Shown: positions 14,670 through 61,386 of the stretch, in pieces | Position numbering within the stretch: position 1 is the first letter of the stretch | Layout of the letters: each line of letters opens with the position of its first letter | NCBI GenBank assembly: GCA_964522105.1 | Contig: CAZFVA010000008.1 | Location: 20,225 to 84,224 of the forward strand | DNA: 64,000 nucleotides | DNA from: an uncultured Anaeromyxobacteraceae bacterium | Lineage (GTDB): Bacteria > Myxococcota_A > UBA9042 > DTJE01 | Direction of reading: 5' to 3' | The notes under the pieces: generated by a model | What the model saw: the letters and a program-made list of their open reading frames with translations, nothing else | Databases searched by the model: none | Told to the model about the DNA's origin: nothing | Made by a program: the position numbers and the translations under genes

Positions 14670-14695
14670 GAACACTTCAGGCAGGGGCTGCAGCA

Positions 14696-15451: not shown

Positions 15452-15457
15452 GGGACG

Positions 15458-17453: not shown

Positions 17454-17454
17454 T

Positions 17455-22554: not shown

Positions 22555-22575
22555 ATCACCCCTCCGAACGTGGAA

Positions 22576-24387: not shown

Positions 24388-24569
24388 ATGGCGCTTCCCT
24401 CCAGCCCGGCGGCGTCCTGTGCAGGACAACCAATCATAAGAGTCACTATGCTAACACTGCCGGGCAGATTACTCAACCAGCATAACAACACGATTTGAAC
24501 CCTGAAAGGCTGTGATGTGCAACGAAAAACGTGAAAGTCACAGGATAATTAACAGATTAGACGGGGGAC

Positions 24570-25169
24570 CTATAAAATTGATTCAGGTACAAAAACAATA
24601 TCACCGGGACGCAAATAGAAATTCTTGGCTTTTCCAAGGCTTATCTGATCAACGGGAACTACAAATCTAGTCTCGGTACCACCGACCGTTCTGGTAACAA
24701 CCGTTGCGTCCGGACGGGCAATTCTGGAAAACCCGCCAGCAAGCGTAATCACCTGAATAATCGTCATCTGATCCTGATAGCGGAAAGTACCCGGCTTCGT
24801 AACCTGCCCCAGAACGTACACCCGCTTACTCATCATTTCTGTGACCAGAACGGTAACCCACGGATCTTTGATAAGTCCGCCGGCAAGGCGCCTGCTGATC
24901 TCATCAGATATCTCGGCAGAAGTCTTTCCATCAACATTTACTTCGCCAAGAAGCGGATAAGAAATAGTCCCTTTGCCAGATACCTGAAACGTGCCGCTCA
25001 GATCCTTTTCGCGATAGACCCGTACCTCGATTACATCACCGGGCCCCAGAGAGTCGGAAGGGCTGATTTCAGCCGGTCCGGCAGATTCCACATAAGCGAC
25101 GGAAGGGGCGCAACCGCCGACCAGCAGAACCAGAACAAGGCTGATTAAAGGGTATATAAAATGCAGCAT
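24570..25169 (-). CDS. Short Wza-like outer-membrane polysaccharide export (OPX) lipoprotein lacking the C-terminal OM helix
   Basis: Lipobox LVGGC, a Poly_export domain (LGPGDVIEVRVY...GEVNVDGKT) and one SLBB domain. At 199 aa it has no Wza-type C-terminal amphipathic helix. Confidence 0.7.
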   Translation of the reverse strand: MLHFIYPLISLVLVLLVGGCAPSVAYVESAGPAEISPSDSLGPGDVIEVRVYREKDLSGTFQVSGKGTISYPLLGEVNVDGKTSAEISDEISRRLAGGLIKDPWVTVLVTEMMSKRVYVLGQVTKPGTFRYQDQMTIIQVITLAGGFSRIARPDATVVTRTVGGTETRFVVPVDQISLGKAKNFYLRPGDIVFVPESIL

Positions 25170-25170
25170 A

Positions 25171-26451
25171 TCAGTACATCACGCGGAACTCGCCCATAAG
25201 CTTATGAGCCATATACTTTCCGTATTCAATCTGCTCGCTGTCAGCACCCCACCGCATCGTTGAGGTGAAATCCGTAAGTGACGACTCGAAATCGTAGCGG
25301 ACACGGAAATCCAGGTAACGCAGTATCTGAATATCAACAGCCATCCCGGCACTCAGCATGTGGTCGCGCCGCTCTGCCTGGGAAACAACGATGTCAGTAT
25401 AGCCACGGGCTGCAATTTCGGCGGCTGACGGGGAATATCCTGCGTACATCAGGTAGGCATACTTCATGAACACCGAAAGTCCGTATCTGTTTTTGAATTT
25501 CACGTCCAGTTTCAGATGAACCGAGTCGGCCGTGTACCATCTTGCGTAATACGAATCAGTGAAATCCCTGTCGTACCCGAGCTCCACAAGAAGGTTAGTA
25601 AAGGGCTTATAAGCAAAACTGAGTTCACCTATAAACGTCTGGACATCAGTTCCCTGCTTGAAGAAACCCTGACCGTAACCGGCCATGAAGGACATCGCCA
25701 GTTTTCTGGTGACATAGCCGCGGACGCCAACTTTGGCACGCAGGGGCATCGAATCTGCCCTGACGCCCACAACATTGGTGGCCCAGTACGAATACCGCCA
25801 GTCAACATCAACGACGAACGATGTGCTCGGGAAGAAGTTCCACAGCAACAGGAATCTGGTCGAATGATAGAACTGATCCAGTTCAGCATGACTGTCGAAC
25901 ATGTTCAGTCCAAAGGAATACGCCAGATCCAGGTCCAGCGCACCGCCCGGTCTGAACTGAACGCCGACGGCAGCTACGTTGACGTTGCGGTCATAGGTGT
26001 CAGATGTCGAATAGTTGGTCGGCTGGGTCAGACGCTTGTAATCGTCGGCAACATACAGACCGACAAGTGATTTCGGCAGAAAATCGGCCCGAAGCCCCGT
26101 GGCCGCGATGATAAGGCCCTGATTCTTGACCGCCTTCGAGTCAGCGAACCAGATATTGAAACCGACCTGGGCGTCCCATGTAAGCCTGACCCAGGACGGG
26201 TTCGGATTCTTCAGCGAGAAACCGGGGGTAAATACCAGTTTGGCACCCCATTCCGGGATTTCCTCGGACGACTCGCGGAACACGTTCGAATCGTATCCGC
26301 CCTGAATGCTGAGGCGCGGCACAAACACAAAACTTCCGAACCGTACACCGCGCACGTCGTCATATATTTCGGGCTTAACGGACACGCCAACGTCGGCATG
26401 GGCCGCACCCGGAATCGCGACAGCCAGCATGACTGCCACGATCGCGAACAT
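25171..26451 (-). CDS. Predicted outer-membrane beta-barrel protein (candidate OPX-partner porin)
   Basis: Signal peptide MFAIVAVMLAVAIPGAAHA, alternating amphipathic Y/G-rich beta-strands, and a C-terminal aromatic residue (…EFRVMY). Confidence 0.5.
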   Translation of the reverse strand: MFAIVAVMLAVAIPGAAHADVGVSVKPEIYDDVRGVRFGSFVFVPRLSIQGGYDSNVFRESSEEIPEWGAKLVFTPGFSLKNPNPSWVRLTWDAQVGFNIWFADSKAVKNQGLIIAATGLRADFLPKSLVGLYVADDYKRLTQPTNYSTSDTYDRNVNVAAVGVQFRPGGALDLDLAYSFGLNMFDSHAELDQFYHSTRFLLLWNFFPSTSFVVDVDWRYSYWATNVVGVRADSMPLRAKVGVRGYVTRKLAMSFMAGYGQGFFKQGTDVQTFIGELSFAYKPFTNLLVELGYDRDFTDSYYARWYTADSVHLKLDVKFKNRYGLSVFMKYAYLMYAGYSPSAAEIAARGYTDIVVSQAERRDHMLSAGMAVDIQILRYLDFRVRYDFESSLTDFTSTMRWGADSEQIEYGKYMAHKLMGEFRVMY

Positions 26452-26525
26452 CAGATTTTTATGAGGTCTGCCCAAAGCGCCCCCCACGAAAACAGAACTG
26501 CGTCTTCGCGACGCATCGCAAAAAT

Positions 26526-27095
26526 TCAGTTGAACGGACTGGCCGACGGCGGCGGCTCAAGATTGCACGGCATTGCCTGGCAGAAATCTGTCAGACCGCT
26601 GGTCGTGTAATCACTTGGAAGTCCGCTGTCGAACAACGGCTCCACCACAGGTTCACCGGAAAACAGTGTTTCTGTTTCAGTCCCCCCGCAAGCTTTAATC
26701 GAGTTCATCAAAGTCAGAACCCTGCCGTTAGCAATTGATATCTTCACAAACTCATGTTCGGCACCTGCCCGATCCTGGCCTATAACTCTTTCACTTAAAG
26801 CCACAGCATTATTATCCGATACCCTCAGCAGCCCCTTGATTCCTTCCAGATTAGTTTCGATACATTTCATCTTTTCTAAATCATTCTGGGTTCTGGCGGT
26901 TGATAAGGCTTCAAGGGCCTGGCGCACAAAGTCGTTCATCTCGGCAATCTTGGCTTTTCCCTGGGCAAGAAATTGATTGAGGGGCATGTTCTTCAACACA
27001 GCCGGATCAAGTTCCGCGGGCGATTCAGCAGCCGAGGCACTGAAACCGCTTAACATGATTACGAAAACCGCAATTATGGCAGATAACCTTTTCAT
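26526..27095 (-). CDS. Secreted hypothetical protein
   Basis: Signal peptide MKRLSAIIAVFVIMLSGFSASA followed by a helical region. No family recognised. Confidence 0.4.
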   Translation of the reverse strand: MKRLSAIIAVFVIMLSGFSASAAESPAELDPAVLKNMPLNQFLAQGKAKIAEMNDFVRQALEALSTARTQNDLEKMKCIETNLEGIKGLLRVSDNNAVALSERVIGQDRAGAEHEFVKISIANGRVLTLMNSIKACGGTETETLFSGEPVVEPLFDSGLPSDYTTSGLTDFCQAMPCNLEPPPSASPFN

Positions 27096-27141
27096 ACCGA
27101 CCTCCCTTTCAGCCCCGGGGAACCAGAAGAACACGCAAAAA

Positions 27142-28584
27142 CTAACCGCCCTTAAGCAACATGAAATGCCTGGTGACCATAACTATACCACCATCAGGCG
27201 GCGGGAAAGGCCAACGCTTGACCTTCGAAATAATGCACTGCCCGATTCCGCTGTCCCCGGTCTCGTTTTCTGTCACACTGGCCTGCGTAACAGTACCGGC
27301 TGATCCGATCGTGAAAGTAATGCTGACTTTACCCTCTACTGACGGGTTTACCTTAAGAGCCTTCTCGTAACAAGTGGTAATGGCCCCGCGGCGCCGTCTG
27401 AACACACTTTCGATGGATGCCGGATTAAGCTTGCCTGGACCGGCAGATTCGCCAAGACGACCACCAATCCTTATCTTGACCGCAGCTTCTGCGACACGTT
27501 CGGTCGCCTCGATCTTCTTTGTGGCAATAGCCTTGTTTGTACCTTTCACATCAGCCGCTGAAAGCTTCTGATAGGTATTTCCACCACCGCCACCGCCTGC
27601 ACCGCCCCGCCCGGCCGCGCCACCGCGATAACCGAACGCGTCGTCCGCGATAATGGTGCCGCCGCCGCTGCCGGATGAAGCAAACGCGCCTTCCATATCA
27701 TTGTCAGCCGCTTCAGCACCGATCATGCCGCGAACGCCGCCGGCACCACCGAGATACTTCAGGATTGTGCCTTCGCGAACCTTTGCGACCTGTCTGCGAT
27801 ATTCAGCAGCCTTGTCAACCGGTCCGGACGCAGCTTTCGTAAACTTCTTCGCCGGCTTGATGTCTTCCTCGATCTGAACTTCGCCGCCGCCCTTGTCGTC
27901 CGCGTCACCCTCGCCTTCGCCCTCGAGGGCCGCCTCATCAAGTTCGGGTGTTTTTTCCTTCAGAACGACCTCGGACTTCAACACACGGTAAACAATAGAC
28001 TTTTCAGCCTGATCAGCTTCATACTGACCTGAAGCATGCCACCAGTAACGTGCGCCACCCACACCAGCAATATTAACGATCATGCTGAAAACAAGGGCCC
28101 ACATGAACGGCCCTTCAAACGCCTTCAGCGGGCCACCCCTGGCGGCCGACGGCAGAGGCATCTTCTTCGGGGGCGGCGGCGGGCTCACCATCTGGAAAAG
28201 CAGTCTGACTTCGCCAAACGTAACTTTACCCGCGTCATTCATTCCGACTGGAAGCAGAAAGTGGTTACCTTCATTCCTGGCAAGGCCCTGTTCACGAATC
28301 TCGTCAAAGGTAAGAATCTTGCCATTAACCGATGTTTTTCCGGTCATTCCCTTGGTGAAGCGAAGACTGTACTTGCCATCCTTGAAAGCAAAAAGAGTAT
28401 AAGATTCCGGCGGTTTAGATATCGGAAGAATCAGCGTGTTTTTGGGATTCAGCCCGACGGTGACGTCGGCGCCGAATTTCACCAGTTTTTCCTCGATGAT
28501 TCGCGACTGGTGAACCAGACCAACCCTCAGAATTCTGTCGTCCGCGCTGATGTTTTTCTTATTCCTGGCCATCCTGTCCGCCAA
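27142..28584 (-). CDS. FHA-like/TM/Gly-rich/TonB-C domain protein (GltG/PglI- or AgmX-like)
   Basis: N-terminal FHA-like beta domain, a PPPPP linker, one TM helix (FMWALVFSMIVNIAGVGG), an acidic Gly-rich spacer, and a C-terminal TonB-C-like domain (EGKVSITFTIGSAGTV...KRWPFPPP). Confidence 0.55.
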   Translation of the reverse strand: MADRMARNKKNISADDRILRVGLVHQSRIIEEKLVKFGADVTVGLNPKNTLILPISKPPESYTLFAFKDGKYSLRFTKGMTGKTSVNGKILTFDEIREQGLARNEGNHFLLPVGMNDAGKVTFGEVRLLFQMVSPPPPPKKMPLPSAARGGPLKAFEGPFMWALVFSMIVNIAGVGGARYWWHASGQYEADQAEKSIVYRVLKSEVVLKEKTPELDEAALEGEGEGDADDKGGGEVQIEEDIKPAKKFTKAASGPVDKAAEYRRQVAKVREGTILKYLGGAGGVRGMIGAEAADNDMEGAFASSGSGGGTIIADDAFGYRGGAAGRGGAGGGGGGNTYQKLSAADVKGTNKAIATKKIEATERVAEAAVKIRIGGRLGESAGPGKLNPASIESVFRRRRGAITTCYEKALKVNPSVEGKVSITFTIGSAGTVTQASVTENETGDSGIGQCIISKVKRWPFPPPDGGIVMVTRHFMLLKGG

Positions 28585-28627
28585 TCAAATATTACCGTGA
28601 GCCATTACTACAGGCCCACATACTCAA

Positions 28628-28957
28628 TTAAAAGGGGTTGCCGTCCACCGAGGACTTCAACTCTTCAACGATGTTCCTGTCGAGCGGGAGGCTCACATAA
28701 TTAGTTTCACCCTGCGAGATTAGATAATCAACGCCTGGTTTTTGAACCTTGCCGTAAACTTTTTCTTCGTCGAAAGTAATTTCAACGACTTTCTTGGAAT
28801 CAGAACCGATCCATTCCCTTGTCTTCGCCGTACCGACCTTTTCCTGTGGCTTGTCAGCCACCGGAGCGGGCTCCTGAGCCATCGAAACCTGCGAACAGAT
28901 TAAGACCAAGCCAGCCATTCCAGCAAATCTAATCTTAACTGCGAGGTCCCTTATCAT
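28628..28957 (-). CDS. Small secreted protein (GltF-like position)
   Basis: MIRDLAVKIRFAGMAGLVLICSQVSMA signal peptide, GGAG RBS, ~109 aa. Confidence 0.4.
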   Translation of the reverse strand: MIRDLAVKIRFAGMAGLVLICSQVSMAQEPAPVADKPQEKVGTAKTREWIGSDSKKVVEITFDEEKVYGKVQKPGVDYLISQGETNYVSLPLDRNIVEELKSSVDGNPF

Positions 28958-29034
28958 CGTCCGGACTCCGTTCATTCCCGAATTATCCATCACCGGGGCT
29001 GACATTGCCAATCAGCCGACCCATTTTTGCACCG

Positions 29035-30474
29035 TTAATTAAAATCCCAGCCGTCATCTGCGGGCACCGGCGGTTTTGCCGGCGACCCGCCTTTGTCTTC
29101 TGCAGGCTGATCCACCGGCGATTCATCGGCACCATCTTCGTCTGCTTTTTCAGGACTGCTGACACCTTCCGCCTTGTCTTTTTCTGCTTTTTCAGCTGCA
29201 GAGCGCATCAAAGCCCCCTGCTGCTCAACGAAGTCAGCCATGCGGACGGCCTCGTCAATGTATTTATCAGCAGTTTCAGCGGTTCCCCCGCCGATCCTGA
29301 CCATAGTCTTGTACCGTTTCAAAAATTCAGCGCCGCGCCGGTAGTGATCCGCCTTGTCCATGCCATCAGCCGGGATATTTTCAATCTCGGCCACCCCCAT
29401 GTTGAAATAACATTCGGCACAAAGGGGGTTAATCTTGAGCGCTTTATCAAAAGCTTCAAAACCATTACCGAATTGCCTGTTCTTTCTGAAGGCGTTACCA
29501 AGATTCACAAACGCCTGCCAGCACACCGGATCAAGCTCAACTGCCAGGCTGAACTGCTCGACAGCGCCGTCAACGTCCCCGGCATTAAGGTAAAGAAGAC
29601 CGAGATTATTCCGCGCCCCGACAAGCCGCGGGTCAAGCTCCAGCGCTTTCGTAAACAATTCAATGGCACGACGGTTGTTGCCGTCGTTCATCTCGAGCTT
29701 TCCGAGGATGTCGTAAACATCGGCCTCTTCCTTGACCCTGATGGACTGAAGCAGGATAAATCTGGCCGCATCAACACGCCCCATCGCCAGATACGCCGAC
29801 GCCATGCTGACCATAATCTCGGTGTTGGACTCGTCCTTCTTCAGCAATTCGGTGTCAAGACGCAGAGCATCCATACCACGGCCGGCCATCATCATCGCAT
29901 CTGCAAGCGCCAGGCCCAGATTCAAACGACCTTTATTCTTCTCGTACAACGATTCCAGCAGAACGGCCGGTTCATTTTTTCTGCCCAGTTCCCTGCTGAT
30001 TTCAATATACAGACGCAGAATCGTCCTGCTGTTCGGCGCCAGAGTAACTGCCTGAGCTGCATTATCGACAGCCGCCAGGAGTGAACCCGATGCCCTCTGG
30101 GCCACGGCAAGGTTATAGTAGTCAACGGCAATGGCAGTCCCTGACGCGACAGCCACCTGAAGAATTTTCATCCCTTCGGTCATCCGAAGATTCTTGAACT
30201 GTGCGATAGCTTCGGTGGAAGCTGCGGACGAAGTCGGCACCGCATCAACGGGCTGCGCGGCGGAATCATCCGGCACCACTTCCACATCCTGAGCGGTCGA
30301 ATCCGCTGAAACTTCAGGCTGCGCAACTTCTGTAACTGACTGTTCCACAGGCGGTATTTCGATCGGAGACGGTGTTTCAACAGGCTGGACCGCGGCACAC
30401 CCGGCCACAACAATTGTGACCGCAGCAATCAGCGCGGACCTGAAATCACTTGTGAGGAAGAATCCCTTAATCAC
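29035..30474 (-). CDS. TPR-repeat lipoprotein (GltE/AglT-like, 479 aa)
   Basis: Lipobox VVAGC, an Ala/Pro/acidic linker, multiple TPR units (…AIELFTKALELDPRLVGARNNLGLLYLNAGDVDGAVEQF…), and an acidic C-terminal tail. Confidence 0.7.
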   Translation of the reverse strand: MIKGFFLTSDFRSALIAAVTIVVAGCAAVQPVETPSPIEIPPVEQSVTEVAQPEVSADSTAQDVEVVPDDSAAQPVDAVPTSSAASTEAIAQFKNLRMTEGMKILQVAVASGTAIAVDYYNLAVAQRASGSLLAAVDNAAQAVTLAPNSRTILRLYIEISRELGRKNEPAVLLESLYEKNKGRLNLGLALADAMMMAGRGMDALRLDTELLKKDESNTEIMVSMASAYLAMGRVDAARFILLQSIRVKEEADVYDILGKLEMNDGNNRRAIELFTKALELDPRLVGARNNLGLLYLNAGDVDGAVEQFSLAVELDPVCWQAFVNLGNAFRKNRQFGNGFEAFDKALKINPLCAECYFNMGVAEIENIPADGMDKADHYRRGAEFLKRYKTMVRIGGGTAETADKYIDEAVRMADFVEQQGALMRSAAEKAEKDKAEGVSSPEKADEDGADESPVDQPAEDKGGSPAKPPVPADDGWDFN

Positions 30475-33400
30475 AGAGCCTCCTCAAACGAAACGGCCCG
30501 CGTAACCCTGTCAACAGGAACAGAAATGTCAGCTTTCTGAAGCGGATATTCCTGCGGAAGGTACTTGTTCAAAGCTTCGATGGCTTTAACTGTCCAGACG
30601 TTGGCAATTTTCAGTTCGCGACCCTGTGTAATCAAAGTTGCGTACCGCTGCTGAGCCGTCTGAAGATAGATCTGGGCCTGATCCTCGATGGCCGTCTGAT
30701 AGATGTCCATTTCCTCTTCAGACATCTCGGGAATCTCGGCAGCAAACAAAGACTTGGCAAACAGTTCATGAATCTGAGCCAGTCTGAAATACGCCGCAGA
30801 TGTCCACTCAAGATTCTTGTACCTGATGACCTTCTTATAGGCCTCTTCAAGCTCGCCAAGAAGAACAGCCTTACCCTTCAGCAGGCGTCCCTGAACGGGC
30901 AGCGACCCCTGAAACTGAATCGCTTCGTACTTCTTGAATTCAGGTTCAATAAGCAGGAACACCATCTTTGCGGGCCAGGCGGCCACCGGTGTGTCCGGCT
31001 GAAGCGCCCGGGCATCAAATTCGGAGATGATCTGATTTGCAAGTGAAAGCCACTCACGCTTGTCGTTACGGGCCAGCGCCATATCGGACAGACTGGCAAG
31101 AACCTCGATTACAACGGCCGAATGGTCAGGCGACTTACTGAATTGTTTCAGGAACTGCCTGTAGATTGCAGACGCCTGTTTGTCATCTTTCAGTCTCTGG
31201 TAAAGCTTTGCAGCCCGCACCAGCGTTGCCCCCGCCGCCTTGTCAGACGGGAAAGCTGCAACAAACTTCACATAGGCGGAAGCAGCTTCGGCCAGTTTAC
31301 CCTGGGCCTCAAGCAGCGAGGCAGCCTGAAGTCTGGCATAAGAGACGTCCTTTGACGTCGGGAACCTTGATACAAGCGCTTCATATGAAACTACGGCCTG
31401 CTCGAAATCAAAGAACTTCCCTGCATTTTCGGCCAGTTGCATCAACGCGCCTTCAACAAATCCCGACTTTGGATAGTCAGACACAATCCGAAGATAGATT
31501 TTGGCAGCCGAATCGTAATGATGAACCTTTTCATACGCCAGGGCAGCGTTCTGCAGGGCCTTGTCGGACAAAGTCCCGGTCGGCTCGCTGTCAACAATCG
31601 CTATGAATGCTTCGGCCGCCTTGATGTATTCACCCTGATCAAAGGCCCTTTCAGCTTCCTTGAACTGGGCCCCCAGTTTGAAAAGCTTCACTTCCTTTGC
31701 CAGTGCCGTGCGATCTTCAGGCTTGCCGAGCTTCTGCTCGTCAATGCGTTTCGCCCAGACGGCAATGTTTTCCCAGTCGTTTTCAAGACGATACGAATTG
31801 ATGATATTTGCAGCTGCGTATGCCGCCACGACATCCTGCGGCCACGTCTCGATGATTTTCAGATAGCGCTGTCTGGCTTCATCCAGATTGTTGTACTTGT
31901 AGAACTCGGTCGCCACGCGGTAAGCCATACGACCTGGCAATTCAGGATCTGTCTGTGACTTTGTCTTCAAAGACACAAAGAAATCAGCATCTTCTACCCA
32001 CTGAAGCGTCAATTCAGGAATCGGAAGCGGAGTCACCTGCACTTTGCCTTCAATCTCGGGCATCGGAACGTCGGTCACGTCACCCGTCTCGCCGGGTACC
32101 GCAGACGCGGCCAACTTACCGTCCTTAACCTGTTTACCGGCTTCACGCTCTATTGAATCAATGACATTGAAGGCCGCTGATTCAAGATATTCCGTCTTTC
32201 CTACCCAGTCCCGGACCTTGCGGTACATAAGGGAAGCTGCGTCAAACTGGAACGAAAAGTAAAGGCAGTCGGCCAGCAGATATGCGTTTTCATAGGCGTA
32301 CTTGCTTTCCGGAAAACGCCTTAAATAGTCTTCATAAACATCAGCTGCTTTGCGGTACTCGGCAAGCGAAGCAACCAGGAATTTCTCGTCCCCGCTGACG
32401 CTGGCCTGGCCCTTCAGCTCCTGCGCGCGCTTATGATGGAACTGCGCGGCCTGATTCATTGCCAGTTCAAGGCGCTTGTCGACCCGCGCAAGAACTTCCG
32501 GGTGATCTTTGTTGTGTTCGTACCAGGCGCTTCCCGGACCATAATTTCTGGCCAGGGCCAGACGCTCGTTAATGGCAGACTCGGTATCCCGCAGCGTGTC
32601 GTAAACAGAAATAATCTTTTCCATGACGGCGGCGTTGCCGGGATTCATCGGATCGCGGGCAACTACCTGACGGTAAGCCTCGATCGCCATCGGGAACTTT
32701 CTGACTTCATATTCGTCATAAAGGGCATCGGCATAGCGTTCAAGGACTTCACGCTCGTACGGTTTTCCGTCCGAAAGATACTTCAAGGCCCTTGCCACGT
32801 CGGCATCAGGATCATCAATGCCATCGCCATCCCAGTCTTCATCAGCAAGGCTGAGCCCCAGATATTCAACAGCTTCTGACCGAATCGCAACAGCACGGGC
32901 GTCCGGTTTTTCCGCATTGTCGACATACTCGATCAACCGCTTGAACGTCCCGATGGCGACAGGGTAGTTGTAGTTCTGAAAATACGACCAGGCCAGTTTG
33001 TACAACAGAATCCCGAAGTATCCGGAATCCTTCGTGTCCAGAGCCTTCTCGTATGAAGCAATGGCCTGTGTGTAATCACCAAGATCAAAGTGATACTCAC
33101 CGACCAGAAGCCACGCCTCGGGAACCCATGAACTGGTCGGGTACTTCTTGATAAGCGCAAGGAATACCTTTTCGTAACCGTCCTTGCCGGCCATCCTTAA
33201 CGTATGACCGAACGCGTACATGGCGGTGTCAACTTCCGCAAAATCCGGAAAGTCATTGATAAGTCTTGAATAAGCGGCCAATGACTTTGAATAGTCACGA
33301 TCCGGTTCAAGCGGCTCGTCCGCAAGCTTTCCCCGGTAGTACAGGTCCAGCTTCTTTTCGTAATCAGGCACTGCCTTCAGGTAGTCTTCCTGAGACTTGT

Positions 33401-33815
33401 CAAAATACAGTTTTGCAATGCGGAAAAGCATCGCCGGGGTATATGTTTTGTGGTTCGGATACCTGTCAAGGAAACGCTCAAAAACACTGATTGCCAGGTC
33501 ACGGCTGTCCCTGACATCTTCTTCAACCGCCGCCGCTTCAAGACGATGGATGCGCTCTATTGCACCACGCCGCCGATCGATTTCCTTTTTCAGCGACGCC
33601 AGAATTTCTTCGCGATACTGCTGCGCCTGCTCGTCGTAACGACCGACAAGCTGCTCGAGTACCTGAATCTCGGACTCGGAGATAGACGTTTTCCCGACAG
33701 GCGCGGCCCCTTGTTCTGAAGGTACGGCTGACGCGGTGGACGACGACACCAGCAAGGTAAAGACCATCGCCGAAGAAATAGCGGACAACAATTTGTTTAC
33801 CGTTATCCCAATCAT
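30471..33815 (-). CDS. Large periplasmic TPR-repeat protein (GltD/AgmU-like, 1114 aa)
   Basis: Signal peptide, TPR-like repeats along the whole length, 4-nt overlap with the downstream TPR gene. Confidence 0.7.
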   Translation of the reverse strand: MIGITVNKLLSAISSAMVFTLLVSSSTASAVPSEQGAAPVGKTSISESEIQVLEQLVGRYDEQAQQYREEILASLKKEIDRRRGAIERIHRLEAAAVEEDVRDSRDLAISVFERFLDRYPNHKTYTPAMLFRIAKLYFDKSQEDYLKAVPDYEKKLDLYYRGKLADEPLEPDRDYSKSLAAYSRLINDFPDFAEVDTAMYAFGHTLRMAGKDGYEKVFLALIKKYPTSSWVPEAWLLVGEYHFDLGDYTQAIASYEKALDTKDSGYFGILLYKLAWSYFQNYNYPVAIGTFKRLIEYVDNAEKPDARAVAIRSEAVEYLGLSLADEDWDGDGIDDPDADVARALKYLSDGKPYEREVLERYADALYDEYEVRKFPMAIEAYRQVVARDPMNPGNAAVMEKIISVYDTLRDTESAINERLALARNYGPGSAWYEHNKDHPEVLARVDKRLELAMNQAAQFHHKRAQELKGQASVSGDEKFLVASLAEYRKAADVYEDYLRRFPESKYAYENAYLLADCLYFSFQFDAASLMYRKVRDWVGKTEYLESAAFNVIDSIEREAGKQVKDGKLAASAVPGETGDVTDVPMPEIEGKVQVTPLPIPELTLQWVEDADFFVSLKTKSQTDPELPGRMAYRVATEFYKYNNLDEARQRYLKIIETWPQDVVAAYAAANIINSYRLENDWENIAVWAKRIDEQKLGKPEDRTALAKEVKLFKLGAQFKEAERAFDQGEYIKAAEAFIAIVDSEPTGTLSDKALQNAALAYEKVHHYDSAAKIYLRIVSDYPKSGFVEGALMQLAENAGKFFDFEQAVVSYEALVSRFPTSKDVSYARLQAASLLEAQGKLAEAASAYVKFVAAFPSDKAAGATLVRAAKLYQRLKDDKQASAIYRQFLKQFSKSPDHSAVVIEVLASLSDMALARNDKREWLSLANQIISEFDARALQPDTPVAAWPAKMVFLLIEPEFKKYEAIQFQGSLPVQGRLLKGKAVLLGELEEAYKKVIRYKNLEWTSAAYFRLAQIHELFAKSLFAAEIPEMSEEEMDIYQTAIEDQAQIYLQTAQQRYATLITQGRELKIANVWTVKAIEALNKYLPQEYPLQKADISVPVDRVTRAVSFEEAL

Positions 33816-36226
33816 TCCGGCGACTCTCCCGCTTTCTTGCTGTCCCGCTGATTTTCCTTGTTGTACGCCTGCTCAAGGACTCCCAGCGATTTCATCTTGG
33901 CGGCCCGCTTTTCGTTTAGAACCTTCAACTTCTGACGCGCCCGCTGCTGTCTTTCCCACGCAACATCAACAACACCGAGATCTGCCTCAAGAAGGACGCC
34001 TGCAATACGCTGACGGACCGATTCAAAAAGCCTGTAGCCTTCGGTCTCGGAAAACCTCCTGGAATCCATCTCGACTCTCTGAACCTCGGCCACCATGCGC
34101 TCTAGCTCGGCTTTCTCGCCAAGAACACTCTTTTCCAGGGCAGCAGCACCTGAATCAACGACCTTAAGAAGCCTGCCAACGACTTTTCTGGTTGAATCGG
34201 CGGCTGAAACGGCCTTCCCGATTACCCGTGAAGCTTCAGACATGAACTTCCCGGCATCCTTGTCAACAGACGCGCCCTTTTCAGCAAGGACGCCGGCTTC
34301 AAAGACAAGGGCCTTCATCAGAAGTTCCCTGGCCATATCAGCGTTTTTCAAAGCCATCGGGGAATTTCTTACGGACGACGCCTTTGTCACGGCATTCTTC
34401 AATTTCGCGGCTTCCACGCCAAGATCAGAAAGGGCGTTTCTGACAGTTTCCATCTCGCTGCGAATCAACTTTTCCTTTTCCGCAGAGAGGGTTACATCCT
34501 GCCTGGCCTTCTGCTCACGAATCCACTCGTCGATTCCACGGATCTGCTGATACTCAATGTTCAAAACAGCGTCGATCATGAAAAGTTGCCTTTCCATAAC
34601 CTGCATGTCTTCCCCGACGGCCTTGTCACGGGCGAGGTATTCGCTTAATTTAATCGGCCCTTCCTGGAACTTCTTATAAGCCTGCTGCCGACTTTTGACT
34701 GCCGCCTGATACTGCGCCAGGGCTTCCCCGGTCAACGCGCGACTCACAATCGGCTCAAGCTCGACAGCAAGTCGCACTGCAGCCTCAAGAAGACTGCCTT
34801 CAGAACTCTTCAGATAAAGATATTTCTGCTTCAACACGGGGAATGTCTCGATTGCGCCGCCGGACTGAAGCGTATAAAGGAGCCTGCCGACAATCTCGAA
34901 TGACTGCCTGACGTCTTCCTTTTCCGTTTTCAAGTCCTTGAACAACACACCGACCGAATGCATTCCACCATCATTCTCGAGCCATTTTGTTGTCTTTTCA
35001 GATAACGGAACCCTGACCTTGAACGCTTCGTTATCGTTGACCGTCATGTAATCAAAGTATTCAGACAGACTGCTGCGACTTGCGGCAACAGTATCAAGTT
35101 CCTTCACAACCGGGGTCAGCACACTGGAAATATCGCGGTACGCACCCTCAGCCCCGTCAATGTCACCGAGCCGGGACATTATCCGGCCACGCAAGGCGGC
35201 GGCACGAAGAGACAGGTCACCAGGTTCAAGCCGCATGACCAGAATATTCAGCACGTACACAGCGTTCTTAAGATCGCCAACCTTCACGTGAACCCACGCC
35301 GAATCGTAAAGCGAATCAAAAAACGAAGAAGAAGACTGCTCAATCTGCTGAAGACTTAGAAGGGCTTCGTCATACCTGGCCTGAAGAAACAAAATTTTGG
35401 CCTGCGCAAGCAGAGCCCTGCCCCGGACATCTATCGTTGTCTGGTCTGTGCCCTGCGTGCGGGCAGCAGCGGCAAAGCCGGCCCAGGACTCATCAAGACG
35501 TCCCGCCTCGGCATCAATCACACCCATGAAATAGCGCGCCCGCCCAAAGTCCAGAGAACCATCGGCGATAGACGAAAATACTTTGTAGGCCTTGGAGTTA
35601 TTGCCCTGGTGGTACAGAAACTTTCCATAGCAATAAAGAACATTTGGTTCGGCAAGAAGACCTGAATCTATCTTGGCGGACCATTTTTCAGCCCCGGAAA
35701 AATCATTAATTGCGACAGATGATTCAAAAAGTCTGGCAACAGCGCGACCATAATCAGCACCGGCTGCAGGATTGGCGGCCAGCATGAAATAAACGCGGGC
35801 AGCAATCAGATTGCGACTTCTATAAAGACTCTCGCCAAGCCTGAAAGCCGTACCGAAATATTCGATCGAATTCTTGCGCGAAATCTTGTCGAGCGCGTCC
35901 TTATACAGTGTAGCGGCCCTTTCATAATCACCCGATTCAAAATACAGGTCGGCATCAAGCAGACGCCTCTCGACAGGAAAGTAATTCGTAACAGCGACAA
36001 GGCTTTCAATCTCGGCATCAGCCCGCTTTAACGCTGTCTCGACATTTCCGACGTCGGCCTCGACAGACGACACCACTTGAAAAAAGCGTTCAGCATCGCG
36101 GGCCTTAATCTTTTTTCCTGATGCATAAGAAAGGGTTACAGGTGACGAGGCGACACAGAAGGCAGCACAAAGAACGACCGGTCTAAAAAAACATGAGAAT
36201 GTTTTGTCGTTAAAGAACCCGGTCAT
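33812..36226 (-). CDS. Large secreted TPR/alpha-helical repeat protein
   Basis: Signal peptide (FRPVVLCAAFCVASSPVTLSYA), TPR-like repeats in the N-terminal half and a coiled-coil C-terminal half. The start was chosen at ATG 36226 to avoid overlapping the upstream gene. Confidence 0.6.
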   Translation of the reverse strand: MTGFFNDKTFSCFFRPVVLCAAFCVASSPVTLSYASGKKIKARDAERFFQVVSSVEADVGNVETALKRADAEIESLVAVTNYFPVERRLLDADLYFESGDYERAATLYKDALDKISRKNSIEYFGTAFRLGESLYRSRNLIAARVYFMLAANPAAGADYGRAVARLFESSVAINDFSGAEKWSAKIDSGLLAEPNVLYCYGKFLYHQGNNSKAYKVFSSIADGSLDFGRARYFMGVIDAEAGRLDESWAGFAAAARTQGTDQTTIDVRGRALLAQAKILFLQARYDEALLSLQQIEQSSSSFFDSLYDSAWVHVKVGDLKNAVYVLNILVMRLEPGDLSLRAAALRGRIMSRLGDIDGAEGAYRDISSVLTPVVKELDTVAASRSSLSEYFDYMTVNDNEAFKVRVPLSEKTTKWLENDGGMHSVGVLFKDLKTEKEDVRQSFEIVGRLLYTLQSGGAIETFPVLKQKYLYLKSSEGSLLEAAVRLAVELEPIVSRALTGEALAQYQAAVKSRQQAYKKFQEGPIKLSEYLARDKAVGEDMQVMERQLFMIDAVLNIEYQQIRGIDEWIREQKARQDVTLSAEKEKLIRSEMETVRNALSDLGVEAAKLKNAVTKASSVRNSPMALKNADMARELLMKALVFEAGVLAEKGASVDKDAGKFMSEASRVIGKAVSAADSTRKVVGRLLKVVDSGAAALEKSVLGEKAELERMVAEVQRVEMDSRRFSETEGYRLFESVRQRIAGVLLEADLGVVDVAWERQQRARQKLKVLNEKRAAKMKSLGVLEQAYNKENQRDSKKAGESPE

Positions 36227-36242: not shown

Positions 36243-36950
36243 TTATTCGACGCCTGCGGCTTCAGCGCTATCCTGACCACCAGACAGGTCACCGGACATC
36301 AGCCGTTTCTGCTTCAGACCAAAACGAACCGATGGACGGTCCTGAAGAGGGGCAGCAAGACCGCCCTTTTCGAAGGAAACCACACTGACCTGAGCTTCCA
36401 TTCCGGAATTGGCAAAGAATGTGAAAGACGATTTCACAATAAACGCATACCCGTCCACGTATGTGAACAGTCCGTTATTCGCCCGCATTTTGATTTCTAC
36501 GGAAAGCAGATGATTGCCAGTGGCCACGCTGCCGGTAAAAACCTCGAACGAATCTGCCGACGCCAGTTTTCCGTCACGATTGGTCCTGAAATAAACCTTT
36601 TCGCCATCCAGAAAATAAACAATTTCTTCGATATCCATCGACGAAGACATCGTGTTGCGATGGACTATCCGGGCCTTGGATTCAGAAATCAGGTTATGCA
36701 TAATCTGCTCGCGCAGAAGCAGAAGCCTGGTCTTTGAATCAAAGACACGACCTTTAAGTTCTTCAACCCGTTCCCGAAGCGCCCTCAACCGAACATCGAA
36801 TCCAGCACCCCCGGCATCACCGGCAGTTGAGGCAGTTGCGGCAGTTGCGGCCGTATCCGCAGGTGCAGTACCTGTGGAATCAGGCTGTTGCGCCAGTGCC
36901 AGGACAGGGCAGACAGTCAAAACACAATAAATGATTAACGCCCGGATCAT
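36243..36950 (-). CDS. Secreted hypothetical protein (coiled-coil + beta-rich C-terminus)
   Basis: MIRALIIYCVLTVCPVLALA signal peptide behind a GGAG RBS, an Ala/Thr-rich linker, a coiled-coil, and a beta-rich domain. Confidence 0.45.
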   Translation of the reverse strand: MIRALIIYCVLTVCPVLALAQQPDSTGTAPADTAATAATASTAGDAGGAGFDVRLRALRERVEELKGRVFDSKTRLLLLREQIMHNLISESKARIVHRNTMSSSMDIEEIVYFLDGEKVYFRTNRDGKLASADSFEVFTGSVATGNHLLSVEIKMRANNGLFTYVDGYAFIVKSSFTFFANSGMEAQVSVVSFEKGGLAAPLQDRPSVRFGLKQKRLMSGDLSGGQDSAEAAGVE

Positions 36951-37126
36951 CTGACGACTCCAGGTTTCTATTACCAAACCGTTGACGAACCCACCCTGAC
37001 AATCCGACCGGCACAGGCTAAAAGCACCCGCCATCTCTTGTCACCGAATTTTAAGCGAACTTACCCGGCAAGTCAAAAGCAGGCAGGCCGAAAGCACAAG
37101 ATTTACGGTATTAATTGCAGATTGGA

Positions 37127-38248
37127 CTAAACCTGGCCTTTATGAATTCCGGCATTCAGGGCAAGCCCGACCGCGACCATCGACGACAGCATCGATGATC
37201 CGCCATACGACATCAGGGGAAGAGTCAGGCCGACGACCGGGAAAAGCCCCAGAACCATTCCAATATTAAAGACTACCTGCCAGAAGATGGTCGCGACCGC
37301 ACCTACACTTACAAGAACCCCGAATCGTTCCCGGGCGCGAATCGCAACGACCAGAAGTGAAATGACAAGCACAAGATACACGACCAGCAACGCGACGCAC
37401 CCGATAAACCCGCGTTCCTCGGCAAAAGACGCGAAAATGTAATCATTGTGCATCTCGGGCAGATAGCGCAGACGCGATTGGACACCCTGACCACCGCCCT
37501 TCCCGGCGATACGCCCGCTTCCGACGGCCCAAAGCGCCTGTTCAGGCTGCATGCCTTTATCAAGATTGCGCTTTGCCGACGGTTCCTGCGTGCTCATCTT
37601 CATCCAGACCCGAACTCTGTCTTTTTGATATGGCCTGATAAGATTAAGGTTCCAGGCCAGAGGAATTACCAGCGCGGCTATCGCCAGCAACGAAAGAAAA
37701 GACCGAAAACGGATGCCTTCAAAAAACATCACCGAAAAGCCGATAGCTGCCACGACCATCGCAGTCCCGAGATCAGGCTGGGCAAGGATCAGAAGCATCG
37801 GAAGAAGAATAAATCCAAGTGGTTTCAGCAACATCCGCAACGTATAACGCTCGGGATTCTTTTCACTGTGAAAAAATCTGGCCAGCATCAGAACGACACC
37901 GACCTTGATGAACTCGGAAGGCTGGATACCGACCTGACCGATGTTGAACCATCGTCTGGAATTATTGATTTCCCTGCCGAAGATAAGCACAGCGACAAGC
38001 AGAATAATTACACTCCAGTAAAAAACCGGAGCGAGCTGCTGAAAAAACCGCATATCAATGACGGCCACGGCGATCGCGACCATGCAACTGATGACGACCC
38101 ACAGAACCTGCGTCTGATGAAACGTCTCGCCTGTATATGAAGCAGCGTTTGTAAGATTGACCAGGCCCATGACCAGAAGAACCATCAGCGCTGCACCGGC
38201 CACCCAGACGGCGCGACTGAATCTTTTTCTGTCCCGTGTCCTTATCAT
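37127..38248 (-). CDS. rodA: Peptidoglycan glycosyltransferase RodA (SEDS family)
   Basis: FtsW/RodA/SpoVE topology (PSEFIK...), positioned downstream of mrdA. Confidence 0.85.
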   Translation of the reverse strand: MIRTRDRKRFSRAVWVAGAALMVLLVMGLVNLTNAASYTGETFHQTQVLWVVISCMVAIAVAVIDMRFFQQLAPVFYWSVIILLVAVLIFGREINNSRRWFNIGQVGIQPSEFIKVGVVLMLARFFHSEKNPERYTLRMLLKPLGFILLPMLLILAQPDLGTAMVVAAIGFSVMFFEGIRFRSFLSLLAIAALVIPLAWNLNLIRPYQKDRVRVWMKMSTQEPSAKRNLDKGMQPEQALWAVGSGRIAGKGGGQGVQSRLRYLPEMHNDYIFASFAEERGFIGCVALLVVYLVLVISLLVVAIRARERFGVLVSVGAVATIFWQVVFNIGMVLGLFPVVGLTLPLMSYGGSSMLSSMVAVGLALNAGIHKGQV

Positions 38249-40332
38249 CAGTCCTCTTTATCCGGCAAATCAACCGGGTCAACCGGGTCAACCGATTCCC
38301 GCTGGCCTGACGGTCCGGCAAAACCGGGGGCGACCTGCCTGCTGTCGAAGATTATCTCAAGTTCCGGATTGTCCTTGAATCCCTCCCAGAGATCCCCGAA
38401 CTCTTCAGCATGTTCACGGTAATAAGTTTCAATCACCTTACGCGCAATCGGGGCAGCCACTGCGCCGCCGAAACCGGCATGTTCAACAAACACGGCGACC
38501 GCAATTTTTGGTCTTTTTGCCGGCGCAACCGCCAGGAACCATGCGTGATCTTCCTTAAGCCAGCTCTGAACTTCCGGAGCTGCATCTTTTCTGGACTCAC
38601 GGGCTTCCGCGGTGCCTGTCTTACCTGAAAACGGCAGTTCAGTTATGCGTGAAGTATAAGCCGTCCCGTCTTCGTCGTTCACTGCACCCAGCAGACCTTT
38701 CATCACAAGATCCAGGTGCTCACGCATCAATGGTAATGTGCGTGTAACTTCAGGTTCAACGGTCGTTTCTTCACCTGTCTCGATGTCTATCAGCGCCTGC
38801 AGAAGGTGGGGCCGCATAAGGCGTCCGCCGTTAACCAGTGCAGCATATGCCCTGGCCATTGACAGCGGAGTTGCCCGGATATCGCCCTGGCCAACCGATG
38901 CATTAATTGCAAAACCTGGTTGGAAACCACCACGGGAAGTCGTGTACCAGCGCTCGGTCGGCATCAAACCGGCCATCTCGCCAATTTCGATACCGGTCTT
39001 TTCACCTACCCCGAAAAGATCCCTGGCATAGTGGGCAATAACATCAATGCCGAGCAGGTCACCAAGTCTGTAGAAATAAGTGTCACAGGACTGAATAAGC
39101 GAGCTGACCAGATCAACTTCGCCATGTCCGAAACGCTTGAAACAGCGGAATCGCCTGTTCCGGTATTCATAATACCCGGGGCAGTCGACCCTGGTTCTGG
39201 AATCAATGACACCTTCCATCAAACCGGCCAGAGCCGTAAAGACCTTGAATGTGGACCCGGGTGGAAAAGCCGACACTGCCTTGTTCATCATCGGAGCGTA
39301 CTCCGGCGACAGGGGCGGCGCCGGTTCAGTTGCGGCGGCAGTAAGGCGCGGACCCAGTTCGAACGTCGGTTCGCTTGCCATCACCAGAACTTCGCCAGTC
39401 TGTACGTCAATCGCGACAACGGCACCGGACTTCTGCGGCTTCAAAGCGGCGGCCGCCGCCTTCTGAAGAACTATATCAAGGGTCAGCCTGATGTTTTTGC
39501 CGGACTGCGGGGGAAAGGAAACGAGATCCTTGAACGGTTCCGGAAGGTCAGAAGGACGAATCCTGTTTCCGGAAGCACTTCTTACATACACGTCTTCGCC
39601 GGCCTTACCGCGAAGAACTGAATCCATCGCCTTCTCGATGCCGGAGCGACCTATGACGTCAGCCGACTTGATTGCACCGCCCGAAGCGTCAACCTCTTCG
39701 CCGGTAACCTCGTTAACGTAACCGAGGGCATGAACGGTAGCAGGCCCCGCCGGGTAATAGCGCACCATTCTTGAATGAAGCGAAAAACCGGGCATCTCGT
39801 GAAGATGGGCCTGAACAACTGCCTTTTCGTCAAAAAACGTCTTCCCGCATTTTGAACAGACCATATGCCCGTTGGACGCATCGAATCTCAAAGGCTCAAG
39901 GTCGAATGGACACCTGGAACCGACAAGATTTCTTTTGATCGGAATCTTGTGAAAGCGCTTTGACCCCTGTCGGCCGTCAATAATCTTCTCGAGCGCATCT
40001 GCCGCCTCTGACGGATTCACGACGCCAAAATCTATCAACTTTTTTACGACTTCTTCCGGTTGTGAAACGTGATGCGGAATAACCATCAGGTCGGAAACTT
40101 CAACGTCTGAAGCCAGAAGAACGCCGTTTCTGTCGTAAATGGCTCCACGCGGGGGCACGATGCGTTCACGGACAACGTGGCTTACGGTTGCCAGAGTTTC
40201 GTACCGTTCGCCGTGAACAATCTGAAGTACAAAAAGGCGGGCGCAGAGAGCCAGAAACACCAGCACGATAAGGATTACCGCCCACCGGAAGTGGGTTCTA
40301 TATTCAACCAGCCCGTCCTGAAGACCGATCAA
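38248..40332 (-). CDS. mrdA: Penicillin-binding protein 2 (elongasome transpeptidase)
   Basis: PBP dimerisation domain plus transpeptidase domain (STFK, SGN, KTGT). Contains an internal Cys/His insertion (RCPFD...HMVCSKCGK). The C-terminus carries a VDPVDPVD tail encoded by a 9-bp tandem repeat. Confidence 0.85.
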   Translation of the reverse strand: MIGLQDGLVEYRTHFRWAVILIVLVFLALCARLFVLQIVHGERYETLATVSHVVRERIVPPRGAIYDRNGVLLASDVEVSDLMVIPHHVSQPEEVVKKLIDFGVVNPSEAADALEKIIDGRQGSKRFHKIPIKRNLVGSRCPFDLEPLRFDASNGHMVCSKCGKTFFDEKAVVQAHLHEMPGFSLHSRMVRYYPAGPATVHALGYVNEVTGEEVDASGGAIKSADVIGRSGIEKAMDSVLRGKAGEDVYVRSASGNRIRPSDLPEPFKDLVSFPPQSGKNIRLTLDIVLQKAAAAALKPQKSGAVVAIDVQTGEVLVMASEPTFELGPRLTAAATEPAPPLSPEYAPMMNKAVSAFPPGSTFKVFTALAGLMEGVIDSRTRVDCPGYYEYRNRRFRCFKRFGHGEVDLVSSLIQSCDTYFYRLGDLLGIDVIAHYARDLFGVGEKTGIEIGEMAGLMPTERWYTTSRGGFQPGFAINASVGQGDIRATPLSMARAYAALVNGGRLMRPHLLQALIDIETGEETTVEPEVTRTLPLMREHLDLVMKGLLGAVNDEDGTAYTSRITELPFSGKTGTAEARESRKDAAPEVQSWLKEDHAWFLAVAPAKRPKIAVAVFVEHAGFGGAVAAPIARKVIETYYREHAEEFGDLWEGFKDNPELEIIFDSRQVAPGFAGPSGQRESVDPVDPVDLPDKED

Positions 40333-40390
40333 AACGTAACTCCGTAAAATGGGTTTCGGGTCGTAACCCGCAGTCAGTCAGCCGGGATAA

Positions 40391-41778: not shown

Positions 41779-41809
41779 GACAATGCCAGTTAAAACAATG
41801 AGTCTAAAA

Positions 41810-42871
<1,062 letters not shown>

Positions 42872-46902: not shown

Positions 46903-48504
<1,602 letters not shown>

Positions 48505-61362: not shown

Positions 61363-61386
61363 TTCGTCGCCCGCTGCGGAGATATT

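Follow-up and report, generated by a model that had tools for sequence, protein, structure and literature searches.

Introduction

What does a trans-envelope complex of the gliding type do in a bacterium where its genes have no motor beside them and are followed instead by the genes of a polysaccharide exporter? The question is raised by a stretch of 64,000 nucleotides (nt) of contig CAZFVA010000008.1, from an uncultured Anaeromyxobacteraceae bacterium, here called the window, in which a run of minus-strand genes encodes relatives of the Glt and Nfs envelope proteins of Myxococcus. An initial annotation of this DNA had read five of the genes as a GltD-E-F-G-like core of a gliding or Nfs-type machine. 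Judged by best match, size and order, the locus is demonstrably something else, namely the Myxococcota orthologue of the M. xanthus G4 cluster plus its three downstream genes, the last two of which correspond to the exporter genes wzpB and wzaB. We consider it somewhat probable that the products form a G4-type polysaccharide-handling complex across the envelope, with a stator encoded elsewhere.

The G4 cluster is a group of M. xanthus paralogues whose gltD homologue is MXAN_1922 and whose function was called unknown (Luciano et al., 2011, PMC3169522). Table S3 of that paper gives MXAN_1919-1923 as 447, 91, 490, 1111 and 809 amino acids (aa); the homologue column of its G4 block is evidently in reverse order, because it is MXAN_1922 that the text calls the gltD homologue. 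WzaB and WzpB, which export the biosurfactant polysaccharide (BPS), are MXAN_1915 and MXAN_1916, and mxan_1915 has been termed 'orphan-like', lying 1.02 Mb from the BPS genes (Islam et al.). A literature search found no paper on MXAN_1917-1924, none naming both WzaB and GltD, and none joining G4 to WzpB/WzaB.

Results

Layout of the locus

The unit runs from approximately 37034 down to 24570 on the minus strand, in the order unk263, GltC-like, GltD-like, GltE-like, GltF-like, GltG-like, MXAN_1917-like, WzpB-like porin and WzaB-like protein of the outer-membrane polysaccharide export (OPX) type. The initial annotation had described the five central, co-directional genes correctly as to size, strand, domains and the 4-nt overlaps between the tetratricopeptide repeat (TPR) genes, as the coordinates of the open reading frames (ORFs) and the ATGA and GTGA junctions confirm, but the limits that it drew, 27142-36226, are too narrow: unk263 upstream and the three genes at 24570-27134 downstream are conserved in most relatives.

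The GltC-like gene (33812..36226) encodes a secreted TPR and coiled-coil protein of 803 aa from the ATG at 36226, within a maximal ORF that reaches 36292 (826 aa). Its stop overlaps the ATG of the GltD-like gene in the sequence GAATGATT, and the stop of the latter (30471..33815; a periplasmic TPR protein of 1114 aa) in turn overlaps the GTG of the GltE-like gene in CTGTGATT. The GltE-like product (29035..30474; 479 aa) is a TPR lipoprotein with the lipobox VAGC at residues 23-26. Pfam detects TPRs in all three of these proteins, and signal peptides are visible on the GltC-like and GltD-like proteins and on the small secreted protein in the GltF/CglF position (28628..29011; 127 aa at most, 109 aa from M19 at 28957), so that the secretion and lipoprotein calls first made for genes 1 to 4 stand. 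A gap of 43 nt, read directly (28585..28627), separates the small gene from that of the GltG-like inner-membrane transducer (27142..28584; 480 aa); it is the site at which relatives carry a stator. Downstream lie the genes for the MXAN_1917-like secreted protein (26526..27134; 202 aa at most, likely start M14 at 27095, in which Cys and His residues are conserved), the WzpB-like outer-membrane beta-barrel porin (25171..26487; 438 aa, bearing a signal peptide and ending in an aromatic residue) and the WzaB-like OPX lipoprotein (24570..25169; 199 aa, lipobox VGGC). In this downstream part the gaps measure about 8-75 nt, varying with the choice of start codon, and the OPX gene starts 1 nt past the porin stop.

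The first gene, unk263 (36243..37034; a 263-aa ORF with likely start M29 at 36950), encodes a protein that carries a signal peptide and, besides an Ala/Pro-rich linker and a coiled coil, has a C-terminal domain rich in beta structure. In at least 32 related loci, stator-bearing and stator-less alike, the gene immediately upstream of the GltC-like one is a homologue, which marks unk263 as a conserved partner. It has no match in Pfam, NCBIfam or the PDB, 24 members of its family are likewise blank in Pfam, and a single-sequence AlphaFold2 model was unusable (pLDDT 42). Profile searches of the PDB with unk263, the MXAN_1917-like protein and the barrel returned nothing or coiled-coil noise.

Homology of the scaffold proteins

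The GltD-like protein gives the clearest alignment, with 32% identity over 1074 aa to the 1110-aa protein of Myxococcus (blastp, E 1e-154), and its YbgF-type TPR pattern in NCBIfam is also that of MXAN_1922. The GltC-like protein matches the NCBIfam GltC model at 2e-5 (23.5 bits against a cut-off of 450) and the C-terminal part of the 809-aa Myxococcus protein at 1e-11 (blastp), and the hidden Markov model (HMM) of its family scores 255 bits on that protein. Residues 16-432 of the GltE-like protein align to positions 3-393 of the 411-position NCBIfam GltE model (1.3e-14, 54 bits against a cut-off of 225), and blastp finds MXAN_1921 at 5e-24 over 412 aa. The small protein matches MXAN_1920 at 8e-5 (blastp); the HMM built from the small ORFs of related loci gives the window protein 50 bits and MXAN_1920 104 bits, while the NCBIfam CglF model, which we take to be GltF, finds MXAN_1920 at 1e-8 (35 bits) and the window protein at 0.034. 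On these alignments the window genes are true homologues of the Glt/Nfs envelope proteins of Myxococcus. That part of the earlier GltD-E-F-G assignment holds, but the register has to be shifted to GltC-D-E-F-G, the 803-aa protein being GltC-like (MXAN_1923) and the 1114-aa protein GltD-like.

Among other families tried for the TPR proteins, PrsT, BcsC and PilW match generic TPR stretches and stay far below their cut-offs. The YbgF model is passed through summed repeats by a protein four times too long, as it is by MXAN_1922. Over their whole length the TPR proteins are most similar to members of the G4/Glt set, and not to BcsC or PrsT.

A genuine gliding motor or Nfs-type spore-coat machine, the identity first proposed for this cluster, would explain the GltC/D/E/F/G homology, and the argument from size and order does hold. 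The NCBIfam equivalog scores, however, all lie far under their cut-offs, and for this reason the window genes, as far as such profiles tell, are orthologues neither of the gliding (G1/G2) nor of the Nfs proteins; their positional matches are instead to MXAN_1923-1919 of G4. Furthermore, none of the 60 ORFs of the window encodes GltA/B/H/K, GltI or GltJ (the GltJ model matched solely through the C-terminal domain that the GltG-like protein shares with it), and the N-terminal GltI-binding FHA domain is missing as well. M. xanthus does not need its orthologue of the GltD-like gene to glide, and Luciano et al. argued that the core alone cannot drive motility (PMC3169522). We therefore regard a gliding or spore-coat machine as very unlikely.

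Correspondence with the M. xanthus G4 cluster

The orthology with G4 is seen most directly on a Myxococcus contig (locus L085), where the same genes encode proteins of 809 (cut by the edge of the locus), 1110, 489, 91, 447, 148 (cNMP-binding), 187, 432 and 204 aa. The window series of 803, 1114, 479, 109-127, 480, 189-202, 438 and 199 aa compares with 809, 1110, 489, 91, 447, 187, 432 and 204 aa. Each of the eight window proteins from GltC-like to OPX has its positional Myxococcus counterpart as best blastp match, in a comparison set that consisted of the Myxococcus locus, and family HMMs built from loci of metagenome-assembled genomes (MAGs) reach 104-279 bits when run on those Myxococcus proteins. 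The Myxococcus G4 proteins are themselves under the NCBIfam cut-offs, with 158 bits for GltG and 121 bits for GltE.

The two loci are alike in having no stator in cis and in having a Mur-ligase gene nearby. They differ in that M. xanthus has the gene of the 148-aa cNMP-binding protein, MXAN_1918, between gltG and MXAN_1917, whereas the window has none, and in their surroundings: in the window the OPX gene is followed by a DnaK-like Hsp70 gene and a periplasmic-binding-protein gene, and mreBCD-mrdA-rodA stands in front, unlike in M. xanthus G4.

Recurrence across Myxococcota

A scan of one genome per species found the array in 79 loci, all of them from Myxococcota or from MAGs labelled 'Deltaproteobacteria'. 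The recurrent order is unk263, C, D, E, the small gene, three stator genes where present (TolQ/ExbB-like, ExbD-like, ExbD-like), G, a gene for a protein of about 200 aa, a beta-barrel and a Poly_export/SLBB protein. Among the 54 loci with at least 9 kb of sequence past gltG, the MXAN_1917-like gene is found in 48, the porin in 49 and the OPX gene in 38. Taken together, these comparisons indicate that G4, MXAN_1917, WzpB and WzaB are one ancient Myxococcota array, which by its gene order originally had its own TolQR-type stator.

The recurrence bears on a reading in which the two halves of the locus are independent neighbours held together by inherited synteny, with the Glt-like core having a different function in the envelope and the Wzp/Wza pair serving its own polysaccharide pathway. 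Several observations fit such a reading. An insertion in MXAN_1922 had no motility or swarm phenotype, whereas BPS-pathway mutants, including wzaB, do show swarm phenotypes; the published BPS work treats mxan_1915 as orphan-like and needs no Glt proteins; and both the housekeeping genes beside the array and the partial absence of OPX, to which we return below, point the same way. Against this, the porin follows gltG and the MXAN_1917-like gene in nearly all of the loci counted, across clades whose GltD-like proteins are merely 27-35% identical, and the linkage persists despite insertions of 5-7 kb. In addition, the genes are co-directional and closely spaced in the window, at intervals of 1 to about 40 nt, and with the Nfs/Exo pair there is already a case of a Glt-type complex at work on a polymer that leaves by way of an OPX protein. 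On balance we think it rather unlikely that the two halves merely stand side by side.

The insertions lie between gltG and the MXAN_1917-like gene in L027, L029, L030, L032-L034, L038, L041, L059, L073 and L074 (for example at 11394-17137 in L033 and 11415-18490 in L029). They encode a protein of about 350 aa with no assigned family, a 149-aa cNMP-binding protein and a giant FG-GAP/integrin-like beta-propeller protein of 1289-1903 aa. The cNMP-binding gene also occurs in M. xanthus (MXAN_1918) and in L005, and the giant protein recalls CglB and CglD, the integrin-like adhesins of gliding. In locus L016 the GltG-like gene and the stator set are each present twice, back to back on opposite strands, an arrangement that suggests local duplication of the inner-membrane module.

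Loss of the stator

In about half of the loci a TolQ/ExbB-like gene and two ExbD-like genes, approximately 2.1 kb in all, lie between the small gene and gltG (L003, L004, L010, L012, L024 and others). The stator protein belongs to the TolQ/ExbB family (70 bits against a TolQ cut-off of 221) and is 65-95% identical across clades. With these genes in place the order matches that of the core complex in Geobacter, Gura_3077 to 3070 (C-D-E-x-R-Q-S-G), and we conclude from gene order that the ancestral array had the form of Luciano's 'core complex', with a TolQ/ExbB-like and two ExbD-like genes.

The window has lost this module, in agreement with the first reading, which had noted the lack of a TolQ/TolR-ExbBD motor. 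Pfam and NCBIfam profiles find no MotA_ExbB or ExbD domain in the 60 window ORFs, and neither tblastn nor the family HMMs of the relatives' stator find a remnant better than E>1 in the six frames of the 64 kb; there is also no stator within 10 kb beyond the right edge of the window. A neighbour-joining tree of GltD-like proteins, rooted at its midpoint and without bootstrap support, can be taken only as indicative. It contains at least three groups that have no stator: one made up of the window, L001, L006, L008, L009, L011 and L013; M. xanthus G4; and a large Polyangia-like group. The stator was thus lost independently in the lineages of the window and of M. xanthus G4, according to this tree. 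The window group is sister to the stator-bearing loci L004, L012 and L024, with which it shares the genes for Hsp70, the periplasmic-binding protein and ThiL downstream, and this shared flank independently supports a deletion in situ. By the gene order of its relatives, then, the absence of a motor in the window is a derived state produced by a clean deletion and not the ancestral one.

Selection on the stator-less genes

Loss of the stator could have inactivated the system and left its genes to drift. A decaying relic of this kind would account both for the deleted stator and for an OPX protein that is without the two WzaB interaction motifs. However, none of the nine ORFs is broken in the window or in six further species of the stator-less clade, and the genes C, D, E, G, MXAN_1917-like, barrel and OPX have dN/dS values of 0.06-0.42 within that clade. 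The lowest values, 0.06-0.14, are those of gltG, and pairs with unsaturated dS (0.4-0.7) are included. Judged by these substitution ratios, the stator-less cluster is demonstrably under purifying selection. Moreover, M. xanthus and the large Polyangia-like clade also keep a stator-less form. A relic is accordingly the least credible of the explanations considered here, and we see hardly any room for it.

The GltG-like transducer

The GltG-like protein matches MXAN_1919 at 1e-41 (blastp) and aligns to positions 212-646 of the 650-position NCBIfam GltG model (7.7e-34, 117 bits against a cut-off of 650). Its C-terminal domain passes the AgmX/PglI model NF033768 with 88 bits (cut-off 40) and falls just short of the TonB_C cut-offs, with 22.1 against 24.6 bits in Pfam and 27.0 against 27.1 bits in TIGR01352. 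It has one hydrophobic helix (approximately residues 151-184) and no signal peptide. An AlphaFold2 model built on an alignment of 12 sequences shows a beta domain (18-133), the helix (151-184), a Gly-rich disordered region (207-369) and an alpha/beta domain (388-477). Foldseek aligns the C-terminal domain with the TonB C-terminal domains (CTDs) 6sly, 7zc8 and 6fip (probabilities 0.95-0.99) and the N-terminal domain with the FHA domains 5yyx, 5w7w and 3gqs. The predicted layout is therefore a cytoplasmic FHA-like domain, one transmembrane (TM) helix, a Gly-rich periplasmic linker and a TonB-CTD-like AgmX/PglI domain, which bears out the domains originally proposed for the 480-aa protein. A bona fide TonB with its ExbBD was also considered and rejected: no exbBD lies beside the gene, and the protein is under the TonB_C cut-off and above that of the AgmX/PglI domain.

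In the AlphaFold study of the Glt machinery, the N-terminal FHA domain of GltG (residues 1-114) binds GltI, a second, TM-proximal FHA-like domain contacts AglR, and a long disordered linker leads to a domain similar to the TonB CTD, which in turn docks on GltD (PMC11761067). The window protein keeps everything from the TM-proximal FHA-like domain onward and lacks the N-terminal GltI-binding one, as follows from the alignment to the GltG model from position 212 only. A word-indexed search finds few close relatives (14 matches), on whose contigs the neighbouring genes recur. A family profile, on the other hand, retrieves 1,204 clusters (50% identity) at E<=1e-30, most of them of 440-500 aa and of the same architecture, so the short GltG type is widespread.

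The TM helix has a Ser followed four residues on by His, Gln or Asn, in stator-bearing and stator-less forms alike (SMIVN in the window, SLLVH in MXAN_1919). In TonB and TolA the S-x3-H face of the 'SHLS' motif contacts ExbB/TolQ, and TonB H20N is reported to be active. The S-x3-H/Q/N pattern of the GltG-like proteins resembles this motif, a parallel by analogy.

These features matter for a reading in which the complex uses no proton-motive energy at all and is a passive scaffold, with the TPR proteins C, D and E chaperoning a polymer to the barrel as in PgaA, BcsC or AlgK and the GltG-like protein as a mere anchor. The absence of a stator from the window and its right flank would be explained at once; relocation of the stator orthogroup is not seen on the 40 contigs long enough to tell among the 80 best matches listed; at least three independent losses mean that the other genes are useful without a stator in cis; and a TPR protein combined with a barrel is the known design of synthase-dependent exporters. 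Yet gltG is the most constrained gene of the stator-less clade, and its product keeps the stator-proximal FHA-like domain and the S-x3-H/Q/N helix face, both of which a mere anchor could dispense with, and the Nfs system sets a precedent for an unlinked stator that serves such a complex. We judge a purely passive scaffold to be fairly unlikely.

The downstream export genes

The MXAN_1917-like protein matches MXAN_1917 at 6e-16 (blastp), with 202 bits for the family HMM, and has no PDB or Pfam match. The porin is recognized by the Pfam models BBP2_2 (3e-8) and OmpA_membrane (4e-5); it matches WzpB (MXAN_1916) at 8e-10 (blastp), and its family HMM scores 279 bits on WzpB. Wzp porins have been related to the PgaA barrel by fold recognition.

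The OPX protein is 50% identical to WzaB (blastp, E 9e-55). Pfam detects Poly_export, SLBB and SLBB_2 as its only domains and no Wza_C outer-membrane helix. Its best PDB match is 9n9a_A (2e-48), a chain whose aligned fragment is 100% identical to the 204-aa Myxococcus protein. The latter has RR at the positions of Arg106-Arg107 and FF at its end, from which we infer that 9n9a_A is the sWzaB of a recent study (PMC12819527). By its short length, predicted lipidation and Poly_export plus SLBB content, the OPX protein, with the adjacent WzpB-like barrel, has the features of a class-3 OPX/Wzp translocon.

Neighbouring genes in the window

Directly upstream of the unit, and co-directional with it, is a complete mreB-mreC-mreD-mrdA(PBP2)-rodA operon (37127-42841, minus strand). 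The 92 nt between the rodA stop and unk263 contain a sigma-70-like consensus match, TTGACT-17-TAAAAT, at 37076-37048. This linkage is found in contigs of the window's species (L086-L088) and is absent in L001; it is probably lineage-specific.

Downstream of the OPX gene, after a gap of 140-180 nt, come the genes of a DnaK-like Hsp70 and, next, of a secreted Peripla_BP_6 protein (21337-24429, minus strand). The Hsp70, of 603-617 aa, passes the DnaK equivalog cut-offs and has no grpE or dnaJ nearby. The series Hsp70, periplasmic-binding protein and thiL after OPX is kept in one clade of relatives, in stator-bearing and stator-less members, and is absent in M. xanthus. The M. xanthus DnaK paralogues SglK and StkA act in the control of exopolysaccharide.

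Elsewhere in the window, an HxsD-like gene, a 71-aa gene and a radical-SAM gene (60772-63086, plus strand), with a second radical-SAM gene just past the edge (L170), resemble a His-Xaa-Ser (Hxs) peptide-modification system. Two adjacent HGD-D genes, similar to the D component of 2-hydroxyacyl-CoA dehydratase, lie at 8167-10526 (plus strand). A molybdenum-cofactor block at 13698-18827 (plus strand) encodes an Oxidored_molyb protein, TauE, MoeA, MoaA, MoaC and a MOSC/MoCF protein. A GroEL-type chaperonin gene (46915-48504, plus strand) has no groES in front; the gene upstream of it, on the opposite strand, encodes a FYDLN_acid protein.

Discussion

A proposed polysaccharide-handling complex with a stator elsewhere

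The reading to which we incline is that of a G4-type, polysaccharide-handling complex spanning the envelope and powered from another locus. A non-motility, polymer-related role, driven if at all by a distant motor, had also been offered at the outset as a possible function of the cluster, and it agrees best with the evidence as a whole. The bridging of the envelope, the action on a polymer and the source of energy may be pictured as follows. The GltG-like protein would be a transducer of the TolA/TonB type, anchored in the inner membrane, whose disordered linker would span the periplasm and whose TonB-CTD-like domain would dock on the pillar formed by the GltD-like TPR protein. The GltC-, GltE- and GltF-like proteins would complete the periplasmic scaffold to the outer membrane, after the AlphaFold model of the Glt machinery (PMC11761067). 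There the scaffold would meet the Wzp-type 18-strand porin and the lipidated OPX protein, a putative translocon for a polysaccharide made by the Wzx/Wzy route. The complex would guide, gate or distribute the polymer at the cell surface, as Agl-Nfs does with the Exo (MASC) polymer of WzaS/WzpS. Because the stator in cis is gone, energy would have to come from an unlinked stator, as it does for M. xanthus Nfs, and presumably for G4, which use AglRQS or another such as M2 (MXAN_3003-3005).

The closest published parallel is Agl-Nfs, which is dispensable for secretion of the Exo polymer and winds the polymer onto the spore, with an unlinked AglRQS stator whose AglR is bound by NfsG (PMC3858216). 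It shares with the role proposed for the window complex a Glt-type machine that works on the polymer of a class-3 OPX protein and porin and is driven by an unlinked stator. The two differ in that Nfs has outer-membrane proteins of the GltA/B/H type and an exporter encoded at another locus, while in the window the exporter is in the operon, those proteins are absent and the single barrel is of the Wzp type.

A number of observations weigh against this reading. A polar insertion in MXAN_1922 caused no appreciable change on hard or soft agar and left gliding normal (PMC3169522); set beside the swarm phenotypes of wzaB mutants, this result suggests that G4 may be unneeded for BPS export or that wzpB/wzaB may be transcribed separately. 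Approximately 30% of the related loci have no OPX gene. The housekeeping neighbours thiL and a Mur-ligase gene are also syntenic in these genomes, so that adjacency by itself is weak evidence of function. Profile scans of the 64-kb window found no Wzx, Wzy or Wzc gene and no glycosyltransferase gene. Arg106-Arg107 of WzaB are essential for binding WzcB, and Phe203-Phe204 for binding WzpB (PMC12819527); where M. xanthus WzaB, in which these motifs were defined, has RR and FF, the OPX protein of the window has K-D and I-L (...PESIL). A stator acting in trans was not found, nor was a relocated copy seen among the 80 best metagenomic stator matches listed: 40 of their contigs had the length needed for a judgement, on all 40 the stator is flanked by glt genes, and none of the 80 comes from the samples Ga0485167 (the window's species) or Ga0377235 (L001). 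The indicative standing of the GltD-like tree, finally, extends to the count of stator losses read from it.

Relation to other systems

The Agl-Glt core complex of Gammaproteobacteria, Geobacter and Fibrobacter (aglRQS with gltC, D, E, G and one extra gene; Luciano 2011, Wartel 2013) is built from these four Glt families too, arranged in the order of the window. It has an aglRQS-type stator in the cluster, whereas the window has none, and the Myxococcota version extends it by the MXAN_1917-like, porin and OPX genes, a difference drawn from neighbours compared on the Myxococcota side only.

With TonB-ExbBD and TolQRA the GltG-like protein has a common design: a single-pass inner-membrane protein with a polar S-x3-H-type face, a long linker and a TonB-CTD fold. 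It departs from TonB in having a Gly-rich rather than Pro-rich linker and a cytoplasmic FHA-like domain, and in being accompanied neither by exbBD nor by a TonB-dependent receptor. PgaA, BcsC and AlgK/AlgE likewise combine periplasmic TPRs with a PgaA-like barrel of 16-18 strands, but the TPR proteins of the window are separate and much larger, are joined by a TonB-like transducer and an OPX protein, and have no synthase nearby.

A more general proposal is that the Glt core and G4 types are the energized partner of class-3 OPX/Wzp translocons, in which, by way of GltG and the TPR pillar, a stator of the TolQR kind would open or drive the porin, or would pull or distribute the polymer. We offer this as a speculative possibility. 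If it were true, export of Wzx/Wzy polysaccharide across the outer membrane would be coupled to the proton-motive force, the machines for gliding and for the spore coat would have been elaborated from an accessory of polysaccharide secretion, and repeated loss of the stator in cis would point to lineages in which several complexes draw on a single stator. Agrebi et al., in an opinion article of 2015, are said to have proposed a capsule-assembly origin of Glt/Nfs.

The window itself is mostly ordinary, a further stator-less member of the array from an uncultured lineage. The functions of G4 and of the core complex have been listed as unknown since 2011, and wzaB has been treated as orphan-like; the two lines meet here, in what the comparisons show to be a single, deeply conserved Myxococcota array that dropped its stator several times while the rest was kept under selection. 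As such, the array bears on the function of the core complex, and on the question of whether the gliding and spore-coat motors may have arisen from a polysaccharide-handling ancestor.

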